32,896 nucleotides of DNA, taken from IMG/VR virus record IMGVR_UViG_3300020166_000007. One strand, 5' to 3'. The position numbers were made by a program, and so were the translations under genes. Positions 1,036-29,215 of this stretch are shown here, piece by piece. The notes below the pieces were generated by a model. That model did no database searches. It was not told where the DNA came from and saw only the letters and a program-made list of their open reading frames with translations. The DNA comes from a virus. Within the stretch, counting starts at the first letter, position 1, and each line of letters starts with the position of its first letter.

Positions 1036-1313
1036 TGGCAACAAAACAACTTTATAGCGCTAACCTTTTTCATAGGATGTCATTCGGTGATTTTGGTTTT
1101 AGGCATTTAGGACCAGGAGAGACTTCAGTAAGTGGAGAGCGGTTTTGTTTAATTGAGGCGCTTAATAATACTAACGTGGATTTTACAAATAATACCACTG
1201 GAGGGGATACCACTTTGACCGGTTTAGTTTTAAAAGATTTTCACAGCGTAAGGGGGGATATTACTGATATAACTGTAAACAGCGGTTACGTAATTGCATA
1301 CCTTAGAAATTGA
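1035..1313 (+). CDS. Hypothetical protein (92 aa)
   Basis: ORF coupled to the upstream gene by a TAATG overlap. No recognisable motif. Confidence 0.5.
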   Translation: MATKQLYSANLFHRMSFGDFGFRHLGPGETSVSGERFCLIEALNNTNVDFTNNTTGGDTTLTGLVLKDFHSVRGDITDITVNSGYVIAYLRN

Positions 1314-1314
1314 T

Positions 1315-1322
1315 TAAATTTG
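1315..1322 (+). promoter_or_regulatory. Bacteroidota-type -7 promoter box, TAAATTTG
   Basis: Matches TAnnTTTG and lies 14 nt upstream of ATG 1337. The box plus leader, TAAATTTGTAGAAAATAAATAGATGGCTACA, is almost identical to the one at 5129. Confidence 0.45.
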
Positions 1323-1336
1323 TAGAAAATAAATAG

Positions 1337-4018
1337 ATGGCTACATTCACTGGAAATAAAATAAAAGATACCTATCAATCAATAGTAAAAGCTATTGACA
1401 ATCTTGAGGTGGGTGCAACTGATAAAATTTTAACCGATGGAGTTGGTAATGAGTTAGGGCTTCACGTAAATACAGAGGGTGATTTTAGAATCGAGGGTGA
1501 TCTCAGAATCGATGGAGCAATAAAAGATTCTTTAAACTCGCCAGGAACTACAGGGCAACTTTTAAAAAGTACGCTAACAGGAACTGACTGGGTTGATGTT
1601 TCTAGCCTAGCAGTTACATCCTTAACAGCTACCACTGGAATAGATGCTGATTTCAGCCAGGGCGATGTGACCATCTCATTAAATACAGAAGGTTTTCAGG
1701 ATATTATAGGAGCTATGGTTTCTGGAAATACGGAAACAAATATTACAGTAACCTATGACGACGTTAATGGAAAATTAAATTTTTCAGTTGATGACTTAGG
1801 CGAGGTTTATACAGCCGATGGATCTACAATAGCTTTAAATTTATCAAATCAATTTAGTATTCCAAATGGAGGGATAGGCACCGATCAAATCGCTGACAGG
1901 TCTATCACAAATGATAAAATAGCTTATCAGTCAATTGGACCAAATGAGATGAAGATAGGCGGTGACATTGGTAGTTCAGGCGAAGTATTGACCTCAAATG
2001 GTGATGGGAACTTTTCCTTTCAAACTTCCGTTTCTAGTATTACAACTGATGGCATAATAGTAGCGGATGACAGTACAGGAGACATAGAGCTCTCAATTGG
2101 ACTGGCAACAATTACTACTTTTCAATTAGTAGATGATGCCATTACAAGCGTTAAAATAGCCGCTAATACAATTGGACCTAGAGAATTAAAAATTGATACA
2201 AACGGAAATGCAAACCAGGCGATAGTATCCGATGGCGATGGTACTTTTTCTTATTCAAATATAGTTAGTTCAATATCAACTGACTCAGTTTTGAGCGCAG
2301 ATGTTTCCATTGGAGCTGTAACAATCTCTTTAAATAATAACTCAATCACTACTGATCAGCTAGATTTATCTGGTTACGGCACGCCTGGTCAAATGCTTAT
2401 CTCTGACGGAGACGGCTCATTTTCCTGGACAAACGCTCCTGGAGTAGATGGCGAAACTAGTGTCAATGTAGATATAACTACAGTCACACAAACTGGCGAT
2501 AATTCAGCCAATACTGTAACTCTCCCTGTATCAATGTCAGATGAGAACGATATAATGGTTTACTTGGATGGGGTTTACCAGACAAAAGATAATTTTTCTG
2601 TAAGCGGCACAACTTTAACACTTGTTGATACTCCAGCAACTGGAGTCGCTATCGAAGTAGTATTATTCACATCTACAAGCGTTACATTAGTGGGCGGATC
2701 TGGATCAGTGAATCATTTACCAATTTTCACACAATCGACAGAGGTTGGCTCTTCTAGTGTTTCTGAGGCTAATGAAATTTTAGATATTGATTTAACTGGT
2801 GCCCTAACTATTCCAATAGGTACAACGTTAGAGCAACCAGCAACGCCTGGAGTTGGGATGATTAGATATAATTCTACATTAACAAAATACGAGCTTTATA
2901 ATGGCTCTGCATTTGTAGATTTACAAAACGTTTACACCGCTGGGAATGGTATCTCAGTGGCTAATAATATTTTTACAGTTGCGGCTGGTAGCGGATTAAC
3001 TCAAGACACTAGTGGACTGAGTCACGATGACACCTCTACACAATCATCAATAACTGCAAGCTCTAGGACTTACGTTACAGGCGTAACTCTAGATACTTTT
3101 GGGCACGTTACTGGATTAACTACAGGGACTGAAACTGTAACATCAAACACCTATACTAATGGCTCTGGATTGACGCTTTCTGCTAATGAGTTTAGTCACG
3201 CAAATACTTCAGATGCCTCCTCTGTAAGTGCCTCAACAAGAAGATATATTAAGTCAGTAACTTTAGATCAATTTGGTCACGTTACGGCACTAACTACAGG
3301 AACCGAAACTGTCACAGATACAACGTACAGCGCCACTGGAAATGGTCTGGATTTGGCTGGGACTGAATTTAGTCACTCCGACACTTCTACGCTGTCAGAT
3401 ACTGTAAATTCTGGCAGAACGTATATTCAAAACGTGACAGTAGATGAGTTTGGACATTTGACTGGAGTAACTACAGCAACTGAGACCGCTGGAGAGGGTT
3501 CTATTTATACCGCTGGAAATGGTTTAGAATTATCTCAATCAAATGAGTTTAGAATAAGCGAGGATATATATGGAATCAGGATAATAGGTACTGGCGATCA
3601 ATCTAATTTTATTTACTTTTTAGAGGATAATTCTATTCAGTTTTTTGTAAATGGTCAGTATATAACTAAAATGGAATCGGATGGCGATTTGCACGTTGAT
3701 GGCGATGTGATAGCTTTCTCTAGCTCAACCTCTTCAGATGAGCGCCTAAAAGACAATATTAAAACAATTGAAAACGCCTCAGATAAAATAAAACAACTAA
3801 AAGGAGTTGAGTTTACTTGGAAAAAGAACGGAAAAAATGGAGGCGGAGTAATTGCCCAGGATGTCGAGAAAGTACTTCCAGGAGCCGTTAAAGAGGTTAA
3901 TTCACTAAATGGTGAGCAAACATATAAAACAGTTGATTACAATGCTGTAATAGGGCTCCTAATTGAAACTAACAAAGAACTTTTAAAGCGTATTGAGCAA
4001 CTTGAAAATAAAAAATAA
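1337..4018 (+). CDS. Tail fibre 1 with a C-terminal S74 intramolecular chaperone (endosialidase-chaperone) domain
   Basis: 893 aa. The N-terminal half carries repeated G(Q/E)xLxSDGDGxFS(W/F/Y) motifs. The middle has three tandem repeats of about 58 aa. The C-terminus, SSDERLKDNIKTI...GVEFTWKK...GVIAQDVEKVLPGAV...YNAVIGLLIE...IEQLE, is the classic autocleaving chaperone signature. Confidence 0.85.
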   Translation: MATFTGNKIKDTYQSIVKAIDNLEVGATDKILTDGVGNELGLHVNTEGDFRIEGDLRIDGAIKDSLNSPGTTGQLLKSTLTGTDWVDVSSLAVTSLTATTGIDADFSQGDVTISLNTEGFQDIIGAMVSGNTETNITVTYDDVNGKLNFSVDDLGEVYTADGSTIALNLSNQFSIPNGGIGTDQIADRSITNDKIAYQSIGPNEMKIGGDIGSSGEVLTSNGDGNFSFQTSVSSITTDGIIVADDSTGDIELSIGLATITTFQLVDDAITSVKIAANTIGPRELKIDTNGNANQAIVSDGDGTFSYSNIVSSISTDSVLSADVSIGAVTISLNNNSITTDQLDLSGYGTPGQMLISDGDGSFSWTNAPGVDGETSVNVDITTVTQTGDNSANTVTLPVSMSDENDIMVYLDGVYQTKDNFSVSGTTLTLVDTPATGVAIEVVLFTSTSVTLVGGSGSVNHLPIFTQSTEVGSSSVSEANEILDIDLTGALTIPIGTTLEQPATPGVGMIRYNSTLTKYELYNGSAFVDLQNVYTAGNGISVANNIFTVAAGSGLTQDTSGLSHDDTSTQSSITASSRTYVTGVTLDTFGHVTGLTTGTETVTSNTYTNGSGLTLSANEFSHANTSDASSVSASTRRYIKSVTLDQFGHVTALTTGTETVTDTTYSATGNGLDLAGTEFSHSDTSTLSDTVNSGRTYIQNVTVDEFGHLTGVTTATETAGEGSIYTAGNGLELSQSNEFRISEDIYGIRIIGTGDQSNFIYFLEDNSIQFFVNGQYITKMESDGDLHVDGDVIAFSSSTSSDERLKDNIKTIENASDKIKQLKGVEFTWKKNGKNGGGVIAQDVEKVLPGAVKEVNSLNGEQTYKTVDYNAVIGLLIETNKELLKRIEQLENKK
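3020..3550 (+). repeat. Three in-frame tandem repeats of 58-60 codons within tail fibre 1
   Basis: Units start at 3020, 3194 and 3371. Each reads SHxDTS...S.R.Y(V/I)..VT(L/V)D.FGH(V/L)T(G/A)(L/V)TT(G/A)TET...Y(T/S).(G/N)GL.L...EF. Confidence 0.8.
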
Positions 4019-5121
4019 TGGCATTACCTACTAGCGGAAGTTTGAGTTTATCTGAAATCGCTACGGAATATGGTGTCGCTCAGGCTAATATTTCTTTAGC
4101 AACTATGTCAACGAATATTAGTTTAACAGCGCCACACGCTGTAAGTGAATTTTATGGCTTGTCATCTGGTCCAGCTTATACACCTTTAACTTATTCAGTT
4201 GTTGAGCAGGGCGGAACCTACACGCCTTTTAGGGTTTATTACAACAATAGTCGCTGGTTTGTTACTACTTCAAACGATAATCAATTTGATATTTCTGACA
4301 ACAACGCTACTTCATTTTCCCAGGGCGCTGTTTATTTGAAAAAGAATGCGGCTTTAGCTTTTAATGGAAATACTGTTTGCAGTATTGACTTATCGGATAA
4401 TGCTGGTGATTTTAGGATTAGTAGATCCACAAATAATGGCACGAGCTGGAGTACAATTTTCACCGATGTCGATGGGAATTTTAGTTCAAATTTAGATAAT
4501 ATCCATATTTTTTACCAGGGCAGTAATCGCTGGGTTGCATTTTCGGATTACACGACTTATATTTCTACAGATAATGGAGCTAGTTGGTCATTTAGTTTAG
4601 GCAGTCCTAGTGTTTCTGGAAATGGCGGAGGCGCTCAATCTGGATCAAGAATTATAATAAATGACAACGCAAATTTCTACGTTTCAGATAATGGCTTTGC
4701 TACAAAAACAGTGATTAGTTTACCTTTTGTAAATGGATCTAAATACGCCCCTAATAACATAGCAACAAACGGCTCAGGAACGTGGCTGGCTTGGAAATAT
4801 ATACCGCTAGGCAGGATGTTAAAGTCTACTAATAATGGAAGCACCTGGAGCGCCATAACTACGGATTTACCAAGTTATGAAAATGGAACTACGATAAAAT
4901 ATAACCAGGGAACCTATGGGGATAGCAAGTTTTTTATAGCTGCTAGCGCCTACGCTGGAAATTTAATTGGAGGGGTTTATAGTTCAGGAAATAACGGATC
5001 TAATTTTAACGCAAATCCATTAGTTGGAAGCCCCACAACAAACAAGGGAGCAATAGGAGTGCATCATAATGGTACAGATTTAGTTGCGGCTGGTCAATAT
5101 GATAACTATAAAATCAATTAA
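4018..5121 (+). CDS. BNR/Asp-box beta-propeller protein (sialidase-like fold), probably a tail-associated receptor-binding or glycan-degrading protein
   Basis: 367 aa. Asp-box motifs (S-x-D/N-x-G-x-x-W) recur: STNNGTSWS, STDNGASWS, STNNGSTWS, plus degenerate SDNGFAT and GNNGSNF. The gene lies between the two fibre genes and is coupled by TAATG. Confidence 0.65.
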   Translation: MALPTSGSLSLSEIATEYGVAQANISLATMSTNISLTAPHAVSEFYGLSSGPAYTPLTYSVVEQGGTYTPFRVYYNNSRWFVTTSNDNQFDISDNNATSFSQGAVYLKKNAALAFNGNTVCSIDLSDNAGDFRISRSTNNGTSWSTIFTDVDGNFSSNLDNIHIFYQGSNRWVAFSDYTTYISTDNGASWSFSLGSPSVSGNGGGAQSGSRIIINDNANFYVSDNGFATKTVISLPFVNGSKYAPNNIATNGSGTWLAWKYIPLGRMLKSTNNGSTWSAITTDLPSYENGTTIKYNQGTYGDSKFFIAASAYAGNLIGGVYSSGNNGSNFNANPLVGSPTTNKGAIGVHHNGTDLVAAGQYDNYKIN

Positions 5122-12141: not shown

Positions 12142-14220
12142 ATGGCATACGGAGCAAAATTCAGATTAGTATTTTCCGATGTAAAAGGGAATCTAAGGAG
12201 GGTCGAAATACTACAGAAAGATTACCAGGGTGATGTTTTTCCTTTAGTTGGGCAAGGCAATCCAGTGGTGATAAAATGGGATGGCGATGATGACTTTTAT
12301 TCACCCATAATAGGCTCAAGCTGTGAGTTAAATTTATTTGAAACTGAGACAACTCAATACGATCAATTTTTTTTATCTGGAGAGCGTGAGTATAAAGTAC
12401 GTGTTTCAACTGGATCAAATGAGGATAAAATATGGAATATAGAATCTGACCAGTGGGAGCAAGCGAATTATGAATGGGATGAGGAAAAAAGTTTTGAGAT
12501 TTATTGGGAGGGCTGGCTACAGGTTGATCAATATCAAGAAAGTTTGCAGCCATATCCAGTGCCAATCAAATTGGTTGCCTATGATGGCTTAGGGACTTTA
12601 GACGCTTTTGATGCGCCTTATTCTAATGCTCCAGATGGCGGATATGATGGGAATACTGATTCGATGTTTTTTTATCTGTATTATATTTTAAATAATTTGC
12701 AGCTGGATTTTGATATTTATGTTTCAAATGCTATAAGAGAAAGCAACGGCAACGCTAATGAAACGCTTTATCACGACATTATTTTAAATGAATATGGCGT
12801 ATTTGATGACTTAGATTTTAGAAATGCCAAAGATGTTTTAGAGTCTTTTTTAAGAGCTACAAATTCCAGGGTTTTCCAATCTCAGGGGCGCTGGTATATT
12901 ATATCAAATAGTAATTTAATAGATGTAAATATTGATCAGCTTTTTAATTATGACATAGGGTTTTCTATTGAGGATCAACTAGCCACAACTGGAGAGGAAA
13001 TAATCGAATACAAAGCTTTTGACCGCTTAGGGAATTATTTATTTACTACTACAGAAAACATACTGTTAAAAGCGCCAACCGATTTGAAGCCAGTCGGTGC
13101 TGATTTTTATAGAGAATATTTGCGCCCTTATCATAAAGTAAAATATGATGTCAAGCTGACAAATGACAAGATAATTAATCTAAATCCGCAGCTCCTATAC
13201 GATGATCACGATTATACACTAGGACCGAACACCTCTATAAGTATTGATCCAAATTATGCGCTAGTAGGTAGTAAGTCAATAAAAACTACTATACACGCCA
13301 GGGAAAATATTGATTTTGATGAGACTTATGAAGTCATTTTAAATACAGTGACTACAGATGACAGTAAAAAATTAAAAGTTGGGTTTTCGTTTTTAGTTGA
13401 ACCATATTATAATTTGATTAATTTCTCGGATGTTTTTGAATATGAGATAGCTGTTATTGTGTACGCTTACGATGCAAATAGTGATTTGATTTATTACAAC
13501 TGGAAAACAGATGAGTGGCAAACAGGAACTGGAGTTGGCGCTATTAATGAAAAAAACAGAACTAAACTGCCACAATTTAAAAAGGTAGGGACCTGGCAAA
13601 ATGTAGAGCTGGAGTTAAATGCTTACGAGGAGGTTGAGGGTGATTTAGATGTTACCATAAACATACACTATCCAAGATTTACAGTTTATCCAACTGAGAC
13701 TGGTTTGGGATTAATTAGCGCAACTTATTTTGATAAAATATTTATTTCAGAGGTTAATGACAACGCCAGTGAAATGATTGTTACAAATACACAAAACGTC
13801 AATAAAACCACTACCGCTGTTTACGATGTAAAAGATATATTTATTTCAAATTATTTAGGATCTAACGCCTCCCAAGGTGGCTATGATGGATATTTTTCAC
13901 GCCCTAGAGATTTCACTATACAGGCGTCTGACTATCCTACAGTTGACAATATTGTATCACAGGAAATATTAAACGATTTTAGAGACTTTGTAAAGCGCTA
14001 TGAGGGTACATTTCGAAATTTAATAAGCGAGCCAATACCAGTATCACTGCATAATAAAATATGGATTGATTTCGGTTCAGGAACTTTCAGAGAAGGCGCC
14101 AGCTGTTATATAGATTCTATGAATTATGATGTGAAGGCTAATGAATATGAGATATCTATGCACGTGCCAAACCAAACCAATGACGTTGATTCTACATTTA
14201 GCGTAAAACTCACAAAATAA
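12142..14220 (+). CDS. Large tail-tip / distal tail (baseplate) protein; function inferred from position only
   Basis: 692-aa ORF directly after the tape measure, followed by a terminator. I could not name a catalytic motif. Confidence 0.45.
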   Translation: MAYGAKFRLVFSDVKGNLRRVEILQKDYQGDVFPLVGQGNPVVIKWDGDDDFYSPIIGSSCELNLFETETTQYDQFFLSGEREYKVRVSTGSNEDKIWNIESDQWEQANYEWDEEKSFEIYWEGWLQVDQYQESLQPYPVPIKLVAYDGLGTLDAFDAPYSNAPDGGYDGNTDSMFFYLYYILNNLQLDFDIYVSNAIRESNGNANETLYHDIILNEYGVFDDLDFRNAKDVLESFLRATNSRVFQSQGRWYIISNSNLIDVNIDQLFNYDIGFSIEDQLATTGEEIIEYKAFDRLGNYLFTTTENILLKAPTDLKPVGADFYREYLRPYHKVKYDVKLTNDKIINLNPQLLYDDHDYTLGPNTSISIDPNYALVGSKSIKTTIHARENIDFDETYEVILNTVTTDDSKKLKVGFSFLVEPYYNLINFSDVFEYEIAVIVYAYDANSDLIYYNWKTDEWQTGTGVGAINEKNRTKLPQFKKVGTWQNVELELNAYEEVEGDLDVTINIHYPRFTVYPTETGLGLISATYFDKIFISEVNDNASEMIVTNTQNVNKTTTAVYDVKDIFISNYLGSNASQGGYDGYFSRPRDFTIQASDYPTVDNIVSQEILNDFRDFVKRYEGTFRNLISEPIPVSLHNKIWIDFGSGTFREGASCYIDSMNYDVKANEYEISMHVPNQTNDVDSTFSVKLTK

Positions 14221-20678: not shown

Positions 20679-21794
20679 ATGGTAAAAAAAGTAAACATTT
20701 CGGCTATAAAGCCAAATGAGGAAAATCCACGCTACATAAACGATTCAAAGTTTAAAAAACTGGTAAAATCAATAAAAGAATTTCCAGAAATGCTAGAAAC
20801 TCGACCACTTGTAGTGGATGAGGATATGATAGTTTTAGGCGGTAATATGCGCCTTAAAGCATTAAAATCAGCTGGAGTCTTTGAAGTACCAGTACACCAG
20901 GTTAAAGGATGGACAGAAGACCAGAAAAAAGAATTTATAATAAAAGACAATATTGGATATGGCGAATGGGATTGGGATCTTGTTGCTAATGATTGGGATT
21001 TAGATAAACTTACTGATTGGGGTTTAGATTTACCAGATTTTCCACAGCTAGAGCCAGAGGCAGAGGAGGATGATTATGAGGAGCCAGATGATTTGCAAGT
21101 TGATGTAGTATTAGGGGATTTAATCGAAATAGGAGAGCATCGTTTATTGTGTGGCGATTCTACAGATTCAGATCAAGTTGCTAAGCTAATGGATGGAAAA
21201 AAAGCTGATATGGTTTTTACTGATCCACCTTATGGAATAGGATATGAATACAATTCACACAAGGACAGTAAAGGAGATGAATATTTAAAATTCTGTGATG
21301 AATGGTTTAATGTTTTGCTGTTAAATTCCGATTTTATATTTATATCAACCGGATGGGCTTATAACAAATTTTGGTGGAATAAAAATCCAAAAGATTGTTT
21401 TTATTGGTTAAGCAGAAACAAAAGGAGTGGAGGTTCTATTAGTCATTTTAGAAAAGTCGAGCCATTGTATATCTGGGGAAAACCTAAAAATAAATATGAT
21501 TTTGATTTTTTTGAGGAAAATACAAAACAAATAGAGGGATTAAGGGATTTGCATAGTTGTCCTAAACCAATAGATTTAATTTCATCAATATTAAAAGGAG
21601 TAAATCAAAACGATTTAATAATGGATATTTTTCTAGGAAGTGGAACTACTATGATAGCAGCACACCAACTTAAAAGAAAATGCTACGGAATGGAGCTTGA
21701 TCCTAAATACTGTCAAGTTATAATTGATAGGATGCAAAAACTTGATCCTAGTTTAGAAATAAAAATAAATGGCGAAAAATATAAAAACCTATAA
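20679..21794 (+). CDS. ParB-like nuclease domain fused to a DNA methyltransferase (beta-class amino-MTase, N6A or N4C)
   Basis: 371 aa. The N-terminus ISAIKPNEENPRYI...LVVDEDMIVLGGNMRLKAL is a ParB/Srx fold. An acidic linker EPEAEEDDYEEPDD follows. Motif IV is DPPY (21222..21233), then motif I DIFLGSGTT. No cognate endonuclease gene lies adjacent. Confidence 0.8.
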   Translation: MVKKVNISAIKPNEENPRYINDSKFKKLVKSIKEFPEMLETRPLVVDEDMIVLGGNMRLKALKSAGVFEVPVHQVKGWTEDQKKEFIIKDNIGYGEWDWDLVANDWDLDKLTDWGLDLPDFPQLEPEAEEDDYEEPDDLQVDVVLGDLIEIGEHRLLCGDSTDSDQVAKLMDGKKADMVFTDPPYGIGYEYNSHKDSKGDEYLKFCDEWFNVLLLNSDFIFISTGWAYNKFWWNKNPKDCFYWLSRNKRSGGSISHFRKVEPLYIWGKPKNKYDFDFFEENTKQIEGLRDLHSCPKPIDLISSILKGVNQNDLIMDIFLGSGTTMIAAHQLKRKCYGMELDPKYCQVIIDRMQKLDPSLEIKINGEKYKNL

Positions 21795-25095: not shown

Positions 25096-25512
25096 TTGCA
25101 AATCCAGGATGTACATAACCTAGAAAAATCAATTGTCACATTATTCAATCTCGATGGCTGGGATTTACAGTGGTGTGGTGGCGGTTATGATCATTATGAT
25201 GCAAAAGGAAAGACGCCAAATGGTAGTAATTGCGTGATAGAAATGAAATTCCGAAACAAATACTATAATACTAAAATCTTAGAAAAATACAAATATGATC
25301 AAATAATGGCTTTGCCAGATGATGTGATTAAATTGTATTTTGTAGATGACCCTAAAGCCAACTATCTATTCTGGTTAAATGATTTAACTATTCCAGGGAT
25401 TAAAGAGATTGAATGCCCTAGCACTACTCTATGGGATCAAAAAAAGAAAACTAAAGAGCTGTATTTGCTTAATGAGTCCCAGGCGATTGTTATAAATAAA
25501 AACCAGGAATAA
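25096..25512 (+). CDS. Small putative PD-(D/E)XK-fold nuclease (138 aa, non-ATG TTG start)
   Basis: The motif YDHYD...(16 aa)...VIEMKFR fits D...E-x-K. The first in-frame ATG lies inside this motif, so a TTG start at 25096, 7 nt after the portal stop, is needed. Confidence 0.4.
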   Translation: MQIQDVHNLEKSIVTLFNLDGWDLQWCGGGYDHYDAKGKTPNGSNCVIEMKFRNKYYNTKILEKYKYDQIMALPDDVIKLYFVDDPKANYLFWLNDLTIPGIKEIECPSTTLWDQKKKTKELYLLNESQAIVINKNQE

Positions 25513-27119
25513 TGTTACTAAAAAAAGCTAAAGAATCCTGGAAAAATAACTTTGATAAAGTTCTGGCTAGTGCAGAGCGTAAAGAGTTTGCTAATGCTAG
25601 ACGCTACTATGAGGGTGAGTACCTTAAAGCAATAGATGATTTTTTAAACACTAGGAAAGCCACTGGATTTGATGGGTTATTTAGATTAGCCGATTTATCT
25701 GAAATATATCGCCAGGTCTATGTAAACATAGGACTCAAGTTTGCAAAATGGTATTCTCAAAACTTTGATAAGGTAATATCTAAGCAAGTGGATGTAACTG
25801 GCTATGATGATATTTGGGCGGAGCGTTTTAACAGAGTCAGCCAGCAAATAGCAGCCGAGAGAGTAACACTAGTCCAGGGGACTGCTAAGGCTACTCTAGT
25901 GAATGTATTCAAACGTTTATCCTCAAATCCAGAGTTTATGACTATGGGTGAACGTGAAGGCGGAAAGTTATTACGCCAGAAGTTTAGCCAATACAGCAAA
26001 AGCCAGGCAGAAAGATTAATCAGGACTGAGTCAACGAATGCTGCTAATTATGCAACGCTACAGAGCGCAACTGATATGTTTGGACAGGAAAGTTTACAAA
26101 AGGAATGGATGACTTCAGTAGATGGCAGAGAGCGTGCAGCTCATAGGTTTGCAGATGGGCAAATAGTAGGTTTTAAAGAAAGGTTTTTAGTAGGTGGCGA
26201 ACAGTTATTCCATCCTGGTGATCCATCTGGAAGCGCCAGAAATGTTGTCAATTGTAGATGCTCTACAGCGCCTTTCCCTAAACCAGAGGCTCAAGCTACA
26301 GGAACTATCCAGGGATTTGGAATAAGACCTCCAGGGCAAGGTATTGGAACTCAGCCTACAGGACCATCAACTCAAAGCGTACTAAGAACTCCTAAGCCAG
26401 TTCGAGAGGTTGTGGAGGAGGTTAAACCTAAGAAGCCACAATTCTATCCAGAGGAGTTAGATAGAATGATTGAGGATGGGTATTTAGTAGGAAATACCGA
26501 ATACTTAAATTTATTAATTGAGCCAGTTAAATTAATTAGAGTGAAAGGTGAATCTGAGCAATTAGCAAATATTATAAAAATTGGAGTTAATAGATTTAAA
26601 CCAGGCTCTAAAACGTTTAGTAATGTTTTAAGTCACGAATTTGGTCACGCTATACATAACCAAAGAAATTGGGCTGTCTTTAATCCTTTTGACAAAAAAA
26701 ATCCAATTGTAGATCCTATAGTGAAAAAATACTTTAATAAATGGCAAAAAATGCTGGGACACAAAAAAGGAAGAGATATTCAAAGAGCTATTCGTAATAA
26801 ATATCATCCTGGGAAATTAGAATATGATTTTGAGCGATTAAAAAAAGAATTTCCAAATTTAAGTTTAAATGAGATTAGAGAATATCACGGATCTATGGCA
26901 GATTTTTTTGGCGCACTAACTAAAAACAGATTAGGCGGAGGACATTCAAATTTTTATTACAATCAAAGGGGTGTTTATGGGCAATATTCAGAGGTTTTAG
27001 CGCATACTTTTGAAAATTACTACGATGTAAATCCAATATTTAAAAAGTATTTTCCTGAGCTATTTGAGGAAACTAAAGAATTAATGAGAGAACTTTTAAA
27101 ACAAGTAGATGGAATTTGA
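25512..27119 (+). CDS. Head morphogenesis protein (Mu F / SPP1 gp7 family) fused to a C-terminal HExxH zincin-like domain
   Basis: 535 aa. The MuF core is AERLIRTESTNAANYATLQS...EWMTSVDGRERAAHR...PGDPSGSARNVVNCRCS. A P/G/Q-rich linker follows. The C-terminal domain carries SHEFGHAIHN, with HEFGH at 26634..26648. Confidence 0.75.
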   Translation: MLLKKAKESWKNNFDKVLASAERKEFANARRYYEGEYLKAIDDFLNTRKATGFDGLFRLADLSEIYRQVYVNIGLKFAKWYSQNFDKVISKQVDVTGYDDIWAERFNRVSQQIAAERVTLVQGTAKATLVNVFKRLSSNPEFMTMGEREGGKLLRQKFSQYSKSQAERLIRTESTNAANYATLQSATDMFGQESLQKEWMTSVDGRERAAHRFADGQIVGFKERFLVGGEQLFHPGDPSGSARNVVNCRCSTAPFPKPEAQATGTIQGFGIRPPGQGIGTQPTGPSTQSVLRTPKPVREVVEEVKPKKPQFYPEELDRMIEDGYLVGNTEYLNLLIEPVKLIRVKGESEQLANIIKIGVNRFKPGSKTFSNVLSHEFGHAIHNQRNWAVFNPFDKKNPIVDPIVKKYFNKWQKMLGHKKGRDIQRAIRNKYHPGKLEYDFERLKKEFPNLSLNEIREYHGSMADFFGALTKNRLGGGHSNFYYNQRGVYGQYSEVLAHTFENYYDVNPIFKKYFPELFEETKELMRELLKQVDGI

Positions 27120-27297
27120 AAAACTAAGAAATAAATATTTAGAAAAACATCCTGATAGTGAGGATCCAATTAACTATACATATCAATTCGGTTTTGATTT
27201 TGTAACAGATTTTTTAAAAAATGCTAATGATAGAGAAATAGCTTACCAGGATGATCCATTTATGGCTGATGATGGAGGATCACTCATTTATTTATAA
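27109..27297 (+). CDS. Small acidic protein (62 aa), translationally coupled to the MuF-zincin gene
   Basis: ORF overlapping the upstream gene by 11 nt. No motif recognised. Confidence 0.5.
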   Translation: MEFEKLRNKYLEKHPDSEDPINYTYQFGFDFVTDFLKNANDREIAYQDDPFMADDGGSLIYL

Positions 27298-27314: not shown

Positions 27315-28007
27315 ATGAACACAATCATTTATAAATCAACCCAGATAGGCGAGCTGTTAGACGCTGACACCTCCGCTGGAGTTGTAAAGGGATATGGATC
27401 TGTTTTTGGTAATGTCGACAGTGATGGCGATATAATCAATAAGGGAGCATACAAAAAGACAATCCAGGAAAACGCTAAGAGAGTTAAATATTTATATCAG
27501 CACGATATGGATAAGCCTCTAGGCAAAATGGTACACCTGGAAGAGGATGACAAAGGTTTAGTTTTTGAGGCGCATATACCTAAAACACAATTAGGGAAAG
27601 ATGTCGTTGAACTTATGAAGGCTGGAGTAATCACTGAAAACTCAGTGGGAATATTGCCTCTACAAAAAGAAATGGGACACGATGGATACAGACACCTCAA
27701 CGAAGTAAAACTCTTTGAGATTAGTGCCGTAACATTAGCAGCGAACGACCAGGCAATGATAATGGATGTAAAAGGTAATATAGATCCAGAAAAAATTGCT
27801 AAAAGGTTCGATAAAATGGCTCAATTAATCAGAAAGGGAGAGATCTCAGATGATTTGGGATACGCCCTGGAGGCGGAAATACTAAAGCTAAAATCTATTT
27901 ACATAAATGTCACTCAGCCGACCGATATTGAAGTCACTGAGCCGATTGTAGTAAAGGCAGACAATAGCGAAATTTTTAAATATTTGTTTAACACTCTAAA
28001 AAAATAA
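27315..28007 (+). CDS. Prohead maturation protease, HK97 family (S78)
   Basis: 230 aa. The motifs are VKGYGSVFGNVDSDGDIINKGAYKKTI, YQHD..KPLGK and EISAVTLAANDQA. Confidence 0.8.
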   Translation: MNTIIYKSTQIGELLDADTSAGVVKGYGSVFGNVDSDGDIINKGAYKKTIQENAKRVKYLYQHDMDKPLGKMVHLEEDDKGLVFEAHIPKTQLGKDVVELMKAGVITENSVGILPLQKEMGHDGYRHLNEVKLFEISAVTLAANDQAMIMDVKGNIDPEKIAKRFDKMAQLIRKGEISDDLGYALEAEILKLKSIYINVTQPTDIEVTEPIVVKADNSEIFKYLFNTLKK

Positions 28008-28009
28008 AA

Positions 28010-29215
28010 ATGGAGGATAACTTAAAAAAAGAACTTGATCAGATCGGAAACATAGTTGATGAGAGAATCGAGAAAGCATTTAACCAGGCTAAAGATAACG
28101 CCAAAGGTGAAATGGAATCATCTCTAAAATCAGAGATTGATAACTTGACTACACAGTATGTAGAGAAGAGCGAAGCTCTTAACAAGAGAATGGATGAGAT
28201 GGAAATGGCTGCAAAGAAAACTATTTCTGGAGCTACTCCACAGACATTTAAATCAGCTATCCATACAGCTTTAAAAGATGGCGCAATTGACGCAATGCTT
28301 AAAGGTAATGCAAACGCTGCTCGCTTTGAAGTAAAAGCTGATATGAGCCTTGGTGCTGATGTTACTGGAGTAGTTGCTGGAGAAACTATCGTGGATCAAA
28401 TCAAATACGATCCTAGTCGTTCAACTCATATTCGTTCTTTGCTTTCTTTAGGATCAACAGATGCTCAAACTATCCGTTATCCAAAAGAGTCTGCTTATAG
28501 CGATAACGCTGGAACTACTGCAGAAGCCGCTGCATTTGGACAGTCAGATTTTGATCTTGCTGCTTCAACTGTAAACGTTGAGAAAATTGGTACTTATATG
28601 AGAATCACTGGAGAGATGTTGGATGATATCAAGCAATTGACTTCTTACCTTTCTGCTAGAGTTCCAGAAAAAGTGCTATCTGTAGAGGATAACCAGATCT
28701 TAAATGGGGATGGATCATCACCAAACTTAGATGGATTATTCACTGACGGAGCTGCATTTGCCGCTGGAGGATTTGCGAACGCTATTGAGTCTGCTAATGA
28801 GTTTGACGTGCTTACAGTTGCTTTAAACCAACTTGCATTGGCTAACTACCAGGCTGATACTATCGTATTAAACCCAACTGATTTACACAAAATGATTTTG
28901 TTGAAATCTACTGCTAATGAGTATTTGAGAAATCAAATCTTTAGCGGTTTACAACCAACAATCAACGGAATCCCTGTAACACTTAATACAGCCGTTACAG
29001 CTGGAAAATTCTTATGTGGAAATTTACGTCAAGCGTCTCAGCTTTGGATTCGTGAGAATCTAGCTGTAGAGTTTAGCCGTGAGGATTCGGATAACTTCCA
29101 AAAGAATTTCGTGACTGTACGTGCAATGGAGAGAGTAGCTTTAACTAACTACCTACCTAATGCAATTGTACAGGGAACTTTCTCAACTGCTAAAGCTGCT
29201 TTAGAGACTGCATAA
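28010..29215 (+). CDS. Major capsid protein, HK97 fold
   Basis: 401 aa. It has an N-terminal coiled-coil delta-like region, follows the protease, shows HK97-family-like sequence and is followed by a strong terminator. Confidence 0.85.
   Translation: MEDNLKKELDQIGNIVDERIEKAFNQAKDNAKGEMESSLKSEIDNLTTQYVEKSEALNKRMDEMEMAAKKTISGATPQTFKSAIHTALKDGAIDAMLKGNANAARFEVKADMSLGADVTGVVAGETIVDQIKYDPSRSTHIRSLLSLGSTDAQTIRYPKESAYSDNAGTTAEAAAFGQSDFDLAASTVNVEKIGTYMRITGEMLDDIKQLTSYLSARVPEKVLSVEDNQILNGDGSSPNLDGLFTDGAAFAAGGFANAIESANEFDVLTVALNQLALANYQADTIVLNPTDLHKMILLKSTANEYLRNQIFSGLQPTINGIPVTLNTAVTAGKFLCGNLRQASQLWIRENLAVEFSREDSDNFQKNFVTVRAMERVALTNYLPNAIVQGTFSTAKAALETA

Follow-up and report, generated by a model that had tools for sequence, protein, structure and literature searches.

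What is a domain resembling a zinc metallopeptidase doing at the end of a phage head protein, and what is the purpose of the small gene that overlaps its 3' end? These questions are raised by a locus in the IMG/VR virus record IMGVR_UViG_3300020166_000007, the 32,896 nucleotides of which we refer to as the window. The locus consists of a fusion gene (25512..27119, + strand; 535 amino acids, isoelectric point (pI) 9.4), defined by open reading frame (ORF) calling and family searches, that joins a MuF head domain to a C-terminal zincin-like domain (the C-domain), and of an ORF for an acidic protein of 62 amino acids (27109..27297, + strand; pI 4.21). Comparison with related loci allowed us to establish that the zincin domain and the adjoining small gene together make up one polymorphic cassette, which is moved as a whole by recombination, and that the small ORF is a cognate, allele-specific partner of the zincin domain. 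Our reading, to which we assign a probability of roughly 0.6, is that the fusion gene encodes a portal-associated MuF protein with an active gluzincin-type zinc metallopeptidase that is delivered by the capsid and matched by an allele-specific small partner, the cassette being replaced as a unit.

The coordinates in the initial annotation were all correct: both genes start at ATG on the + strand and overlap by 11 nucleotides, and they are translationally coupled. The same applies to the motifs TESTNAANY (residues 172-180), NCRCS (247-251), HEFGH (375-379; 26634..26648), EYHGSMADFFG (457-467) and EVLAHTFENYY (494-504), and to the description of the small ORF as acidic and adjoining the zincin gene. 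Its claim of a MuF/SPP1 gp7 head-morphogenesis domain is backed by phrog_2468 ('head morphogenesis', E=2e-35), matching residues 18-261 (25563..26294, + strand), and by the Pfam core PF04233 at residues 153-252 (25968..26267, + strand), with E=1e-10 above the curated cut-off; a match to TIGR01641 stayed below its cut-off. The Pro/Gly/Gln-rich linker that it described is likewise apparent from composition as a presumably flexible stretch rich in P, T, G and Q (residues ~252-312; 26265..26447, + strand), leading into the C-domain (residues 301-535; 26412..27116, + strand; pI 9.17), which homologue clusters, an AlphaFold2 model and phrog_4728 delimit as the polymorphic part of the protein.

Exchange of the zincin domain together with its partner gene

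We worked with 85 related loci drawn from viral, metagenome and genome collections. Compared gene by gene, the small ORF changes in step with the zincin domain, and both far outpace the neighbouring genes in divergence. In the pair L012/L020, identity is 94% for the portal protein, 86% for the N-terminal MuF part (MuF-N), 91% for the S78 prohead protease and 93% for the major capsid protein (MCP), with 49% for the C-domain and 48% for the small ORF; for L012/L028 the corresponding values are 93%, 83%, 91% and 90%, with 46% and 50%. The pair L010/L009, in which the portals are not comparable, has 58% for MuF-N, 85% for the C-domain, 81% for the small ORF, 78% for S78 and 84% for the MCP. Some locus pairs with MuF-N parts that are 83-99% identical have C-domains that are 26-57% identical, and among closely related pairs the ratio of non-synonymous to synonymous substitution (dN/dS) is ~0.2 in the C-domain, 0.1-0.3 in the small ORF and 0.03-0.13 in portal, protease and capsid genes. 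Across 120 pairs from 16 distinct loci, conservation of the C-domain is below that of S78 and also below that of the MCP in 98% of cases, and the divergence of the C-domain is correlated with that of the small ORF (r=0.93). With MuF-N, S78 and MCP controlled for, the partial correlation is 0.80, a value reached in 0 of 1000 permutations, with all other partial correlations lying between -0.21 and 0.23.

Sliding-window DNA identity between locus pairs was used to place the boundaries of the divergent islands, and revealed sharp breakpoints in four co-directional pairs. Between L087 and L025, flanks of 97-100% identity enclose an island of 32-71% that extends from about amino acid 302 of the MuF gene to the stop of the small ORF, after which identity is 100%. 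The island of L088/L022 (37-62%, flanks 80-97%) runs from about amino acid 285 to the small-ORF stop, that of L089/L033 (45-69%, flanks 93-100%) from about amino acid 347 to the same point, and that of L012/L028 (27-69%, flanks 80-95%) begins about 45 amino acids inside the C-domain and stops where the small ORF ends. The left breakpoints in the relatives span amino acids ~285-385, in or just past the region equivalent to the linker. On the right, identity recovers at or just before the start of the gene for the S78 prohead protease (27315..28007, + strand, in the window; Pfam E=1e-28), the conserved right flank. The initial annotation had coupled the small ORF to the zincin by position, and the two are indeed exchanged as a sharply bounded cassette and co-diverge after flanking genes are controlled for.

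Divergence in situ, or hypermutation, is excluded by the L087/L025 pair with its flanks of 97-100%, which demonstrates replacement by recombination. Synonymous-site comparisons of L012, L020 and L028 were ambiguous between hypermutation and recombinational import. In the C-domains of these three loci, where protein identity is only 46-49% and the apparent dN/dS 0.6-0.7, fourfold-degenerate sites at conserved residues are 57-62% identical versus 17-34% across genes, a saturated comparison. This pattern, resting on small numbers of sites, hints at diversifying selection besides recombination.

A small gene is found at the zincin 3' end in all 85 complete loci, in co-directional orientation in 31 and convergent in 54. 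An iterated search with hidden Markov models (HMMs) placed a small ORF of the window type directly downstream of the zincin gene in the 31 loci, which include the window, at offsets of -53 to +6 nucleotides, and at no other site within them. The 23 distinct sequences of this family encode 61-76 amino acids, nearly all with a pI of 4.1-4.9, and a database search added 44 homologues, all of them stand-alone hypothetical proteins of 55-83 amino acids. Zincin domain and window-type small ORF occur as a pair in two types of head module, one with an HK97-type portal and S78, the other with a Mu-type portal and a ClpP-like protein. In L001 (a 71%-identical relative from JGI sample 3300000973), two frameshifts split the MuF-zincin gene (1051..2565) into three ORFs, possibly through sequencing error or because it is a pseudogene; the small ORF downstream is intact.

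In each of the other 54 loci (L004, L005 and L034-L085), the opposite strand bears a small gene whose product, trimmed to the conserved Met, has 72-101 amino acids, for example at 4467..4700 (minus strand) in L035 and 4672..4971 (minus strand) in L083. The 3' ends of these genes overlap or abut the zincin stop in nearly all cases, at offsets of -14 to +29 nucleotides; the exceptions are L004 and L039, where the convergent gene lies ~175 nucleotides off, beyond another small ORF. They fall into the families M1 (28 loci), M2 (10 loci) and M3 (16 loci), of which M1 is related to M2 (hhalign probability 84%), and an LLExxxxGKKI-like motif recurs in the convergent families and in the window type. 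Divergence of the convergent genes follows that of the zincin domain with r=0.97 (partial r given MuF-N 0.88), and L034 and L051, with MuF-N parts that are 99% identical, have C-domains of 56% and partners of 57% identity. Zincin and small gene are therefore exchanged together in both orientations. Since the convergent genes break the co-directional run of the surrounding head genes, their arrangement suggests independent transcription, for example from a prophage.

Conservation and modelled fold of the C-domain

With an E-value limit of 1e-3, an exhaustive HMMER search returned homologues of the C-domain in at least 357 representative clusters. The 150 matches listed are mostly proteins of ~450-615 amino acids with the zincin domain at the C-terminus, and in all 85 related loci it occupies the extreme C-terminus of an ORF of 445-775 amino acids; in a second homologue search, PF04233 was present in every full-length match. 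The relatives that carry a species name, all distant, belong to the Flavobacteriia (Wenyingzhuangia, Flavobacterium). Overall identity among the C-domain homologues is only 20-45%, and yet H375, E376, H379, D464, G477, H478, Y482 and E494 are invariant across 109 sequences, with G378, G475, A497, H498, E501, N507 and P515 nearly so. HExxH is present in 135 of 152 proteins listed; nearly all the others are fragments without the region, and one carries HEAGGH.

The initial annotation had made its reading depend on conservation of the His and Glu residues among homologues, and conserved they are. The HExxH string is no chance occurrence, its H, E and H being invariant in all 109 homologues that cover the region, and the conserved-looking acidic and His positions downstream of it turned out to include the invariant D464 and E494 and the nearly invariant H498 and E501. 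In the window, H375-E376-x-x-H379 (26634..26648, + strand) is predicted to provide two zinc ligands and the catalytic base. The D464 ... G475-x-G477-H478 ... Y482 block (26901..26957, + strand), made of invariant or nearly invariant columns, may have an accessory active-site role, and the Glu helix E494-x-x-A497-H498-x-x-E501, which is followed by N507 and FPELF (26991..27065, + strand), probably supplies the third zinc ligand through E494.

The AlphaFold2 model of the C-domain is confident, with a mean predicted local distance difference test score (pLDDT) of 89.3 and a predicted template-modelling score (pTM) of 0.88. Short N-terminal helices are followed by a three-stranded sheet, the HExxH helix, a helical insert of ~70 residues, and helices that bear D464 and E494/H498/E501. 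In the numbering of the model (1 = residue 301), the strands span 40-44, 49-51 and 54-58, helix 68-84 bears H75-E76-x-x-H79, and E494 lies on helix 180-204. The layout as modelled is that of a zincin core with a gluzincin-type Glu helix.

How does the domain relate to known peptidases? The C-domain matches no curated family of Pfam, NCBIfam or PADLOC, only the C-terminal part of phrog_4728 ('head morphogenesis') matches it (E=1e-6), and blastn and tblastn searches with the locus and the C-domain gave no match in 50,697 GenBank phage records. Against the PDB, the best scores of the family profile were for myroilysin (E=0.008), anthrax lethal factor (0.11) and ArdC (0.43), followed by BepA and FtsH. 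When 37 diverse members were scanned singly, the recurring Pfam families were all metallopeptidases (M90/MtfA, M78, Zn_peptidase_2, MPTase-PolyVal, SprT, M91 and M48). Peptidase M90 (MtfA, PF06167) is matched weakly by 17 of the 37 (best E 1e-7), the inspected matches scoring 17-25 bits against a Pfam cut-off of 26.2 bits, and not by the window protein. The window protein likewise has no match to MPTase-PolyVal (PF18818), the polyvalent-protein metallopeptidase (MPTase), which six of the 37 match weakly (best E 3e-4), the matches inspected again staying under the gathering threshold. ATLF (PF07737/M34) is matched by one member at E 0.047, and the lethal factor match is not significant in either the PDB profile search or Foldseek. 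A comparison of the family with E. coli MtfA by hhalign gave a single co-linear alignment with a probability of 22%; in that register HEFGH lies opposite MtfA HEVAH (149-153), E494 opposite the Glu within AECFAVLSEYFF of MtfA, and FPELF opposite FPSLW. An EF-hand match of the C-domain (phmmer against the PDB) was spurious.

In structural searches with Foldseek, the recurrent weak matches of the C-domain model were lethal factor and Certhrax (E 0.9-7, TM score 0.25-0.33), and the significant matches in BFVD were only to uncharacterised or generically named viral proteins of ~520-630 amino acids, one of which (630 amino acids) is called 'minor capsid protein'. Profile searches against zincin families including the polyvalent-protein MPTase, which the initial annotation had proposed, agree with it in direction, with all scores below threshold. 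Its claim of a metallopeptidase-like domain holds as regards the invariant motif and Glu helix, the zincin-core model and the recurring weak metallopeptidase profiles, and falls short as regards a significant Foldseek match to a solved metallopeptidase. Judging from these weak, sub-threshold similarities, the C-domain would be a zincin of the MtfA, lethal-factor and polyvalent-MPTase neighbourhood that lies outside every curated family. Because HExxH and the downstream Glu helix are invariant, the AlphaFold2 model has a zincin core and only metallopeptidases recur among the weak matches, we conclude that the C-domain bears all the sequence hallmarks of an active zincin.

Such an enzyme might serve envelope penetration, breaking down peptidoglycan or proteins of the periplasm after its ejection while the DNA enters; in phage phi24B, the metallopeptidase domain of gp47, a virion-associated polyvalent protein, has been proposed to have such a role (bioRxiv 10.64898/2026.04.10.717836). 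We consider this very improbable: none of the searches found a likeness to a known family of cell-wall peptidases, an endolysin is encoded separately in the window, and a conserved cell-wall substrate fails to explain a cytoplasmic allele-specific partner and rapid diversification.

Proposed delivery and the role of the partner

MuF proteins are portal-associated. The MuF part of the fusion would recruit a few copies into the procapsid by targeting the portal and capsid, and during DNA ejection the MuF-zincin protein would pass out of the capsid as well. The protease, with H375, H379 and E494 as putative zinc ligands and E376 as catalytic base, would then act early in the next cell, where its target would be a host protein, a defence protein or its own linker. 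In the producing cell the enzyme would be silenced by the 62-amino-acid protein, acting as inhibitor or immunity protein, and the zincin-partner cassette would be replaced by recombination between related phages, as in polymorphic toxin/immunity and colicin DNase-Im systems. We infer packaging, ejection, early proteolysis and inhibition by the 62-amino-acid protein from what is described for polyvalent proteins, polymorphic toxins and MuF/SPP1 gp7 (PMC5576092, PMC5512222). Among polyvalent proteins that are delivered by virions, the MPTase is the principal hub (PMC5512222), and several architectures tie our zincin domain to the capsid-delivered effector world of Iyer et al., because it lies upstream of ADP-ribosyltransferase exotoxin domains in P0047 (810 amino acids) and P0099 (1035 amino acids), is joined to a Mu-type portal and MuF in a single polypeptide (portal-MuF-zincin) in P0129 (942 amino acids), and is present in 3-4 distant tandem copies in P0083 (6205 amino acids).

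The main rival explanation is that the zincin is a housekeeping protease for morphogenesis or autoprocessing in the procapsid, with the small protein as a folding or assembly chaperone and no effector role in the next host. For MPTases in packaged polyvalent proteins, Iyer et al. have proposed autoprocessing (PMC5512222). Here, the zincin domain is preceded by a long flexible linker, and the gene lies within the head-assembly operon near the prohead protease. Furthermore, the N- and C-halves of the protein co-diverge overall (Mantel r 0.79), which would fit an old fusion inherited mostly vertically with MuF. For a housekeeping enzyme, however, one would expect neither the highest divergence within the head module nor a swap together with its partner between flanks that are 97-100% identical. 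A dedicated S78 prohead protease is already encoded, and the zincin domain is also fused to ADP-ribosyltransferase toxin domains. We therefore regard a purely morphogenetic function as unlikely, although morphogenetic and effector roles could coexist.

The role of the small protein raises a question of its own. Its AlphaFold2 model (pLDDT 93) consists of three helices followed by two short strands. By analogy with toxin loci, the 62-amino-acid protein is most likely an inhibitor or immunity protein, but it might also be a cognate partner of another kind, i.e. an allele-specific activator, substrate adaptor or co-packaged cofactor. Indeed, co-swapping and co-divergence reveal specificity and not the direction of the effect, and the complementary charges of the two proteins (pI 4.2 for the small protein versus 9.2 for the C-domain) would suit this alternative as well. 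MtfA-like zincins are regulated by a protein partner, since Mlc binding activates MtfA. On the other hand, immunity genes of polymorphic and MuF toxin loci canonically lie right behind the C-terminal effector domain (PMC5576092), which is where the small ORF sits, and the convergent small gene of 54 loci would fit independent, immunity-like expression better than stoichiometric co-production. An activating or adaptor role is thus doubtful in our view. As a marker of partner-bearing loci, charge complementarity was uninformative, the C-domain pI differing only slightly (8.5 versus 7.8). A DNA-binding role, for which Foldseek against the PDB offered only Cro-like topologies (E>1, TM score 0.38), was judged unlikely in view of the protein's acidity.

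Several observations weigh against the reading of the locus as an effector protease with its inhibitor. The window protein reaches no curated Pfam or NCBIfam peptidase threshold, and Foldseek of the C-domain model against the PDB gave no match at E<=1e-3. The 62-amino-acid protein shows no similarity to a known inhibitor or immunity protein, or to any other family, in Pfam, PHROGs, NCBIfam, PADLOC or by Foldseek against the PDB. Its family is confined to one clade and absent from 54 of the 85 loci, and since homology to M1-M3 was not significant (hhalign E 0.05-0.3) we do not claim a universal partner family. Given the co-divergence of its two halves, the MuF-zincin fusion appears to be old and stable, not freely shuffled. 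No integrase was found among the window ORFs scanned, and MuF toxins have been described as exclusive to temperate phages. Finally, delivery, proteolysis, toxicity and inhibition are all steps that we infer.

The first two of these results could also mean that the C-domain is a catalytically dead structural module with HExxH as a relic. Relics decay, whereas here the full presumed metal-binding and catalytic set is invariant across alleles that are otherwise 20-45% identical, which makes a dead module hardly credible.

Going further than an effector protease with a small partner, one may envisage a colicin-like specificity system inside capsids, in which the injected protease would cut a fast-evolving host-defence or rival-phage protein and the allele-specific inhibitor would also protect cells occupied by kin phages. 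We put this forward as a speculation that is unlikely to hold. If it were true, diversification of the cassette would drive kin discrimination and superinfection outcomes among phages of marine Flavobacteriia, and the choice between a co-directional (late-operon) and a convergent (independently transcribed) partner would correspond to lytic versus lysogenic use of the module.

MuF proteins with metallopeptidase C-termini and small ORFs have already been catalogued in bulk (Jamet et al. 2017). What is new here is that this zincin family and the families of its partners are defined, and that they occur in phages from marine metagenomes, one of which has a siphovirus-type genome that apparently lacks an integrase. 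Also new are direct evidence that the cassette is exchanged and that the partner co-evolves, and the finding that the partner gene has either of two orientations. MuF-fused 'toxins' are a widespread group, and a large conserved protease family with cognate small partners is now defined among them, the genes of which are named only 'head morphogenesis protein' or 'minor head protein' by annotation pipelines. To our knowledge, no metallopeptidase MuF 'toxin' has been studied experimentally. Whether phages inject the protease, which substrates it has and whether its partner inhibits it or confers immunity can now be tested directly, and natural allele swaps in near-isogenic backgrounds (L025 versus L087) will serve as ready-made specificity controls. 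If the target were a defence protein, the family would represent a new class of packaged anti-defence enzyme.

Head-module context and comparison with known systems

The window appears to be one phage genome of ~33 kb, with all ORFs examined on the + strand. Endolysin, holin and tail fibre genes are followed by tail tube and tape measure, a replication module, and small and large terminase; then come portal, a 138-amino-acid ORF, MuF-zincin, the 62-amino-acid ORF, S78, capsid and head-tail connectors. The head module is marked by an HK97-type portal protein (PF04860; 23461..25089, + strand; Pfam E=8e-58) and an HK97-fold MCP (28010..29215, + strand; Pfam E=2e-40). Portal and MuF genes are direct neighbours in most relatives; in the window, the 138-amino-acid ORF (25096..25512, + strand) separates the end of the portal gene (25089) from the MuF start (25512); it has a TTG start and a 1-nucleotide overlap with the MuF start. 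This ORF occurs only in the window, L001 and L006, is absent from the 70%-identical L007 and L008, and had no match in Pfam, PHROGs, NCBIfam, PADLOC or the PDB. It is an accessory indel outside the zincin/small-ORF cassette; a D...E-x-K-like string (YDHYDAKGKT...VIEMKFR) would allow the guess of a PD-(D/E)XK nuclease. Distant relatives are located in large bacterial contigs beside Mu-type portal genes.

Some further features were observed in passing. Portal length varies from ~458 to 770 amino acids among close relatives (window, L001, L007 and L022), and the L001 portal has an additional C-terminal segment of ~110 amino acids that is missing from the window portal. Just upstream of the terminase genes, the window encodes a protein of 371 amino acids (20679..21794, + strand) with a ParB-like nuclease N-terminus and a DNA methyltransferase C-terminus (PHROGs 498, 620 and 940). 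Two large ORFs of the tail region, of 692 (12142..14220, + strand) and 367 amino acids (4018..5121, + strand), are without a Pfam or PHROG match.

Among known systems, the T4 internal proteins (such as IPI*) and the P1 Dar proteins are also variable head-internal proteins, thought to act early against host defences, but what targets them is a capsid-targeting sequence or Dar partners and not a MuF fusion. We know of none among them that is a zincin with a cognate small partner. MtfA (M90) and lethal factor (M34) share with our family HE[FV][GA]H, a downstream E-x-F-A-x-x-x-E-x-[FY]-[FY] and then F-P-x-L-[FWY], and the activity of MtfA is under the control of a protein partner. The differences are the helical insert of ~70 residues between the HExxH and Glu helices and the extra invariant D, GxGH and Y block, which is specific to our family, and all scores are below significance (hhalign 22%; Foldseek E>0.8, TM score <=0.33).

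The polyvalent-protein MPTase (Iyer, Burroughs, Anand, de Souza and Aravind 2017, PMC5512222; PF18818) resembles the C-domain in its three-stranded sheet, HExxH helix and Glu helix, and in its links to MuF, portal and ADP-ribosyltransferase domains. Furthermore, the HExxxH form known in those MPTases (PMC5512222) has a counterpart here in P0036, and tandem copies occur in P0083. Unlike those giants, the protein studied here has a simple two-domain architecture, and PF18818 is matched only weakly, by six of 37 members and never by the window protein. The two systems may also differ in genetic organisation: as far as we know, polyvalent-protein MPTases have not been described with a small partner gene dedicated to them.

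The MuF polymorphic toxins (Jamet et al. 2017, PMC5576092) have an N-terminal MuF domain beside the portal gene, an enzymatic C-terminal extension, a small ORF (<150 amino acids) immediately downstream and joint exchange of C-domain and small ORF, as found here. Among their 191 MuF toxins, 20% are metallopeptidases and 89% have a small ORF immediately downstream (PMC5576092). The locus described here departs from that scheme in that zincin and partner belong to families that Pfam does not describe, that allelic variation takes place within one fold instead of a swap to unrelated toxin folds, that the small gene is convergent in most related loci, and that the window ORFs scanned include no integrase; in addition, their toxins are tied to Firmicutes, whereas our named relatives are Flavobacteriia. 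Compared with the colicin E DNase-Im and CdiA-CT/CdiI systems, our locus would differ in being delivered by ejection from a phage capsid, and its toxicity and immunity are putative. What these systems have in common with it is that a C-terminal catalytic domain and the adjoining small gene recombine and diversify as a unit, while the part responsible for delivery is conserved.

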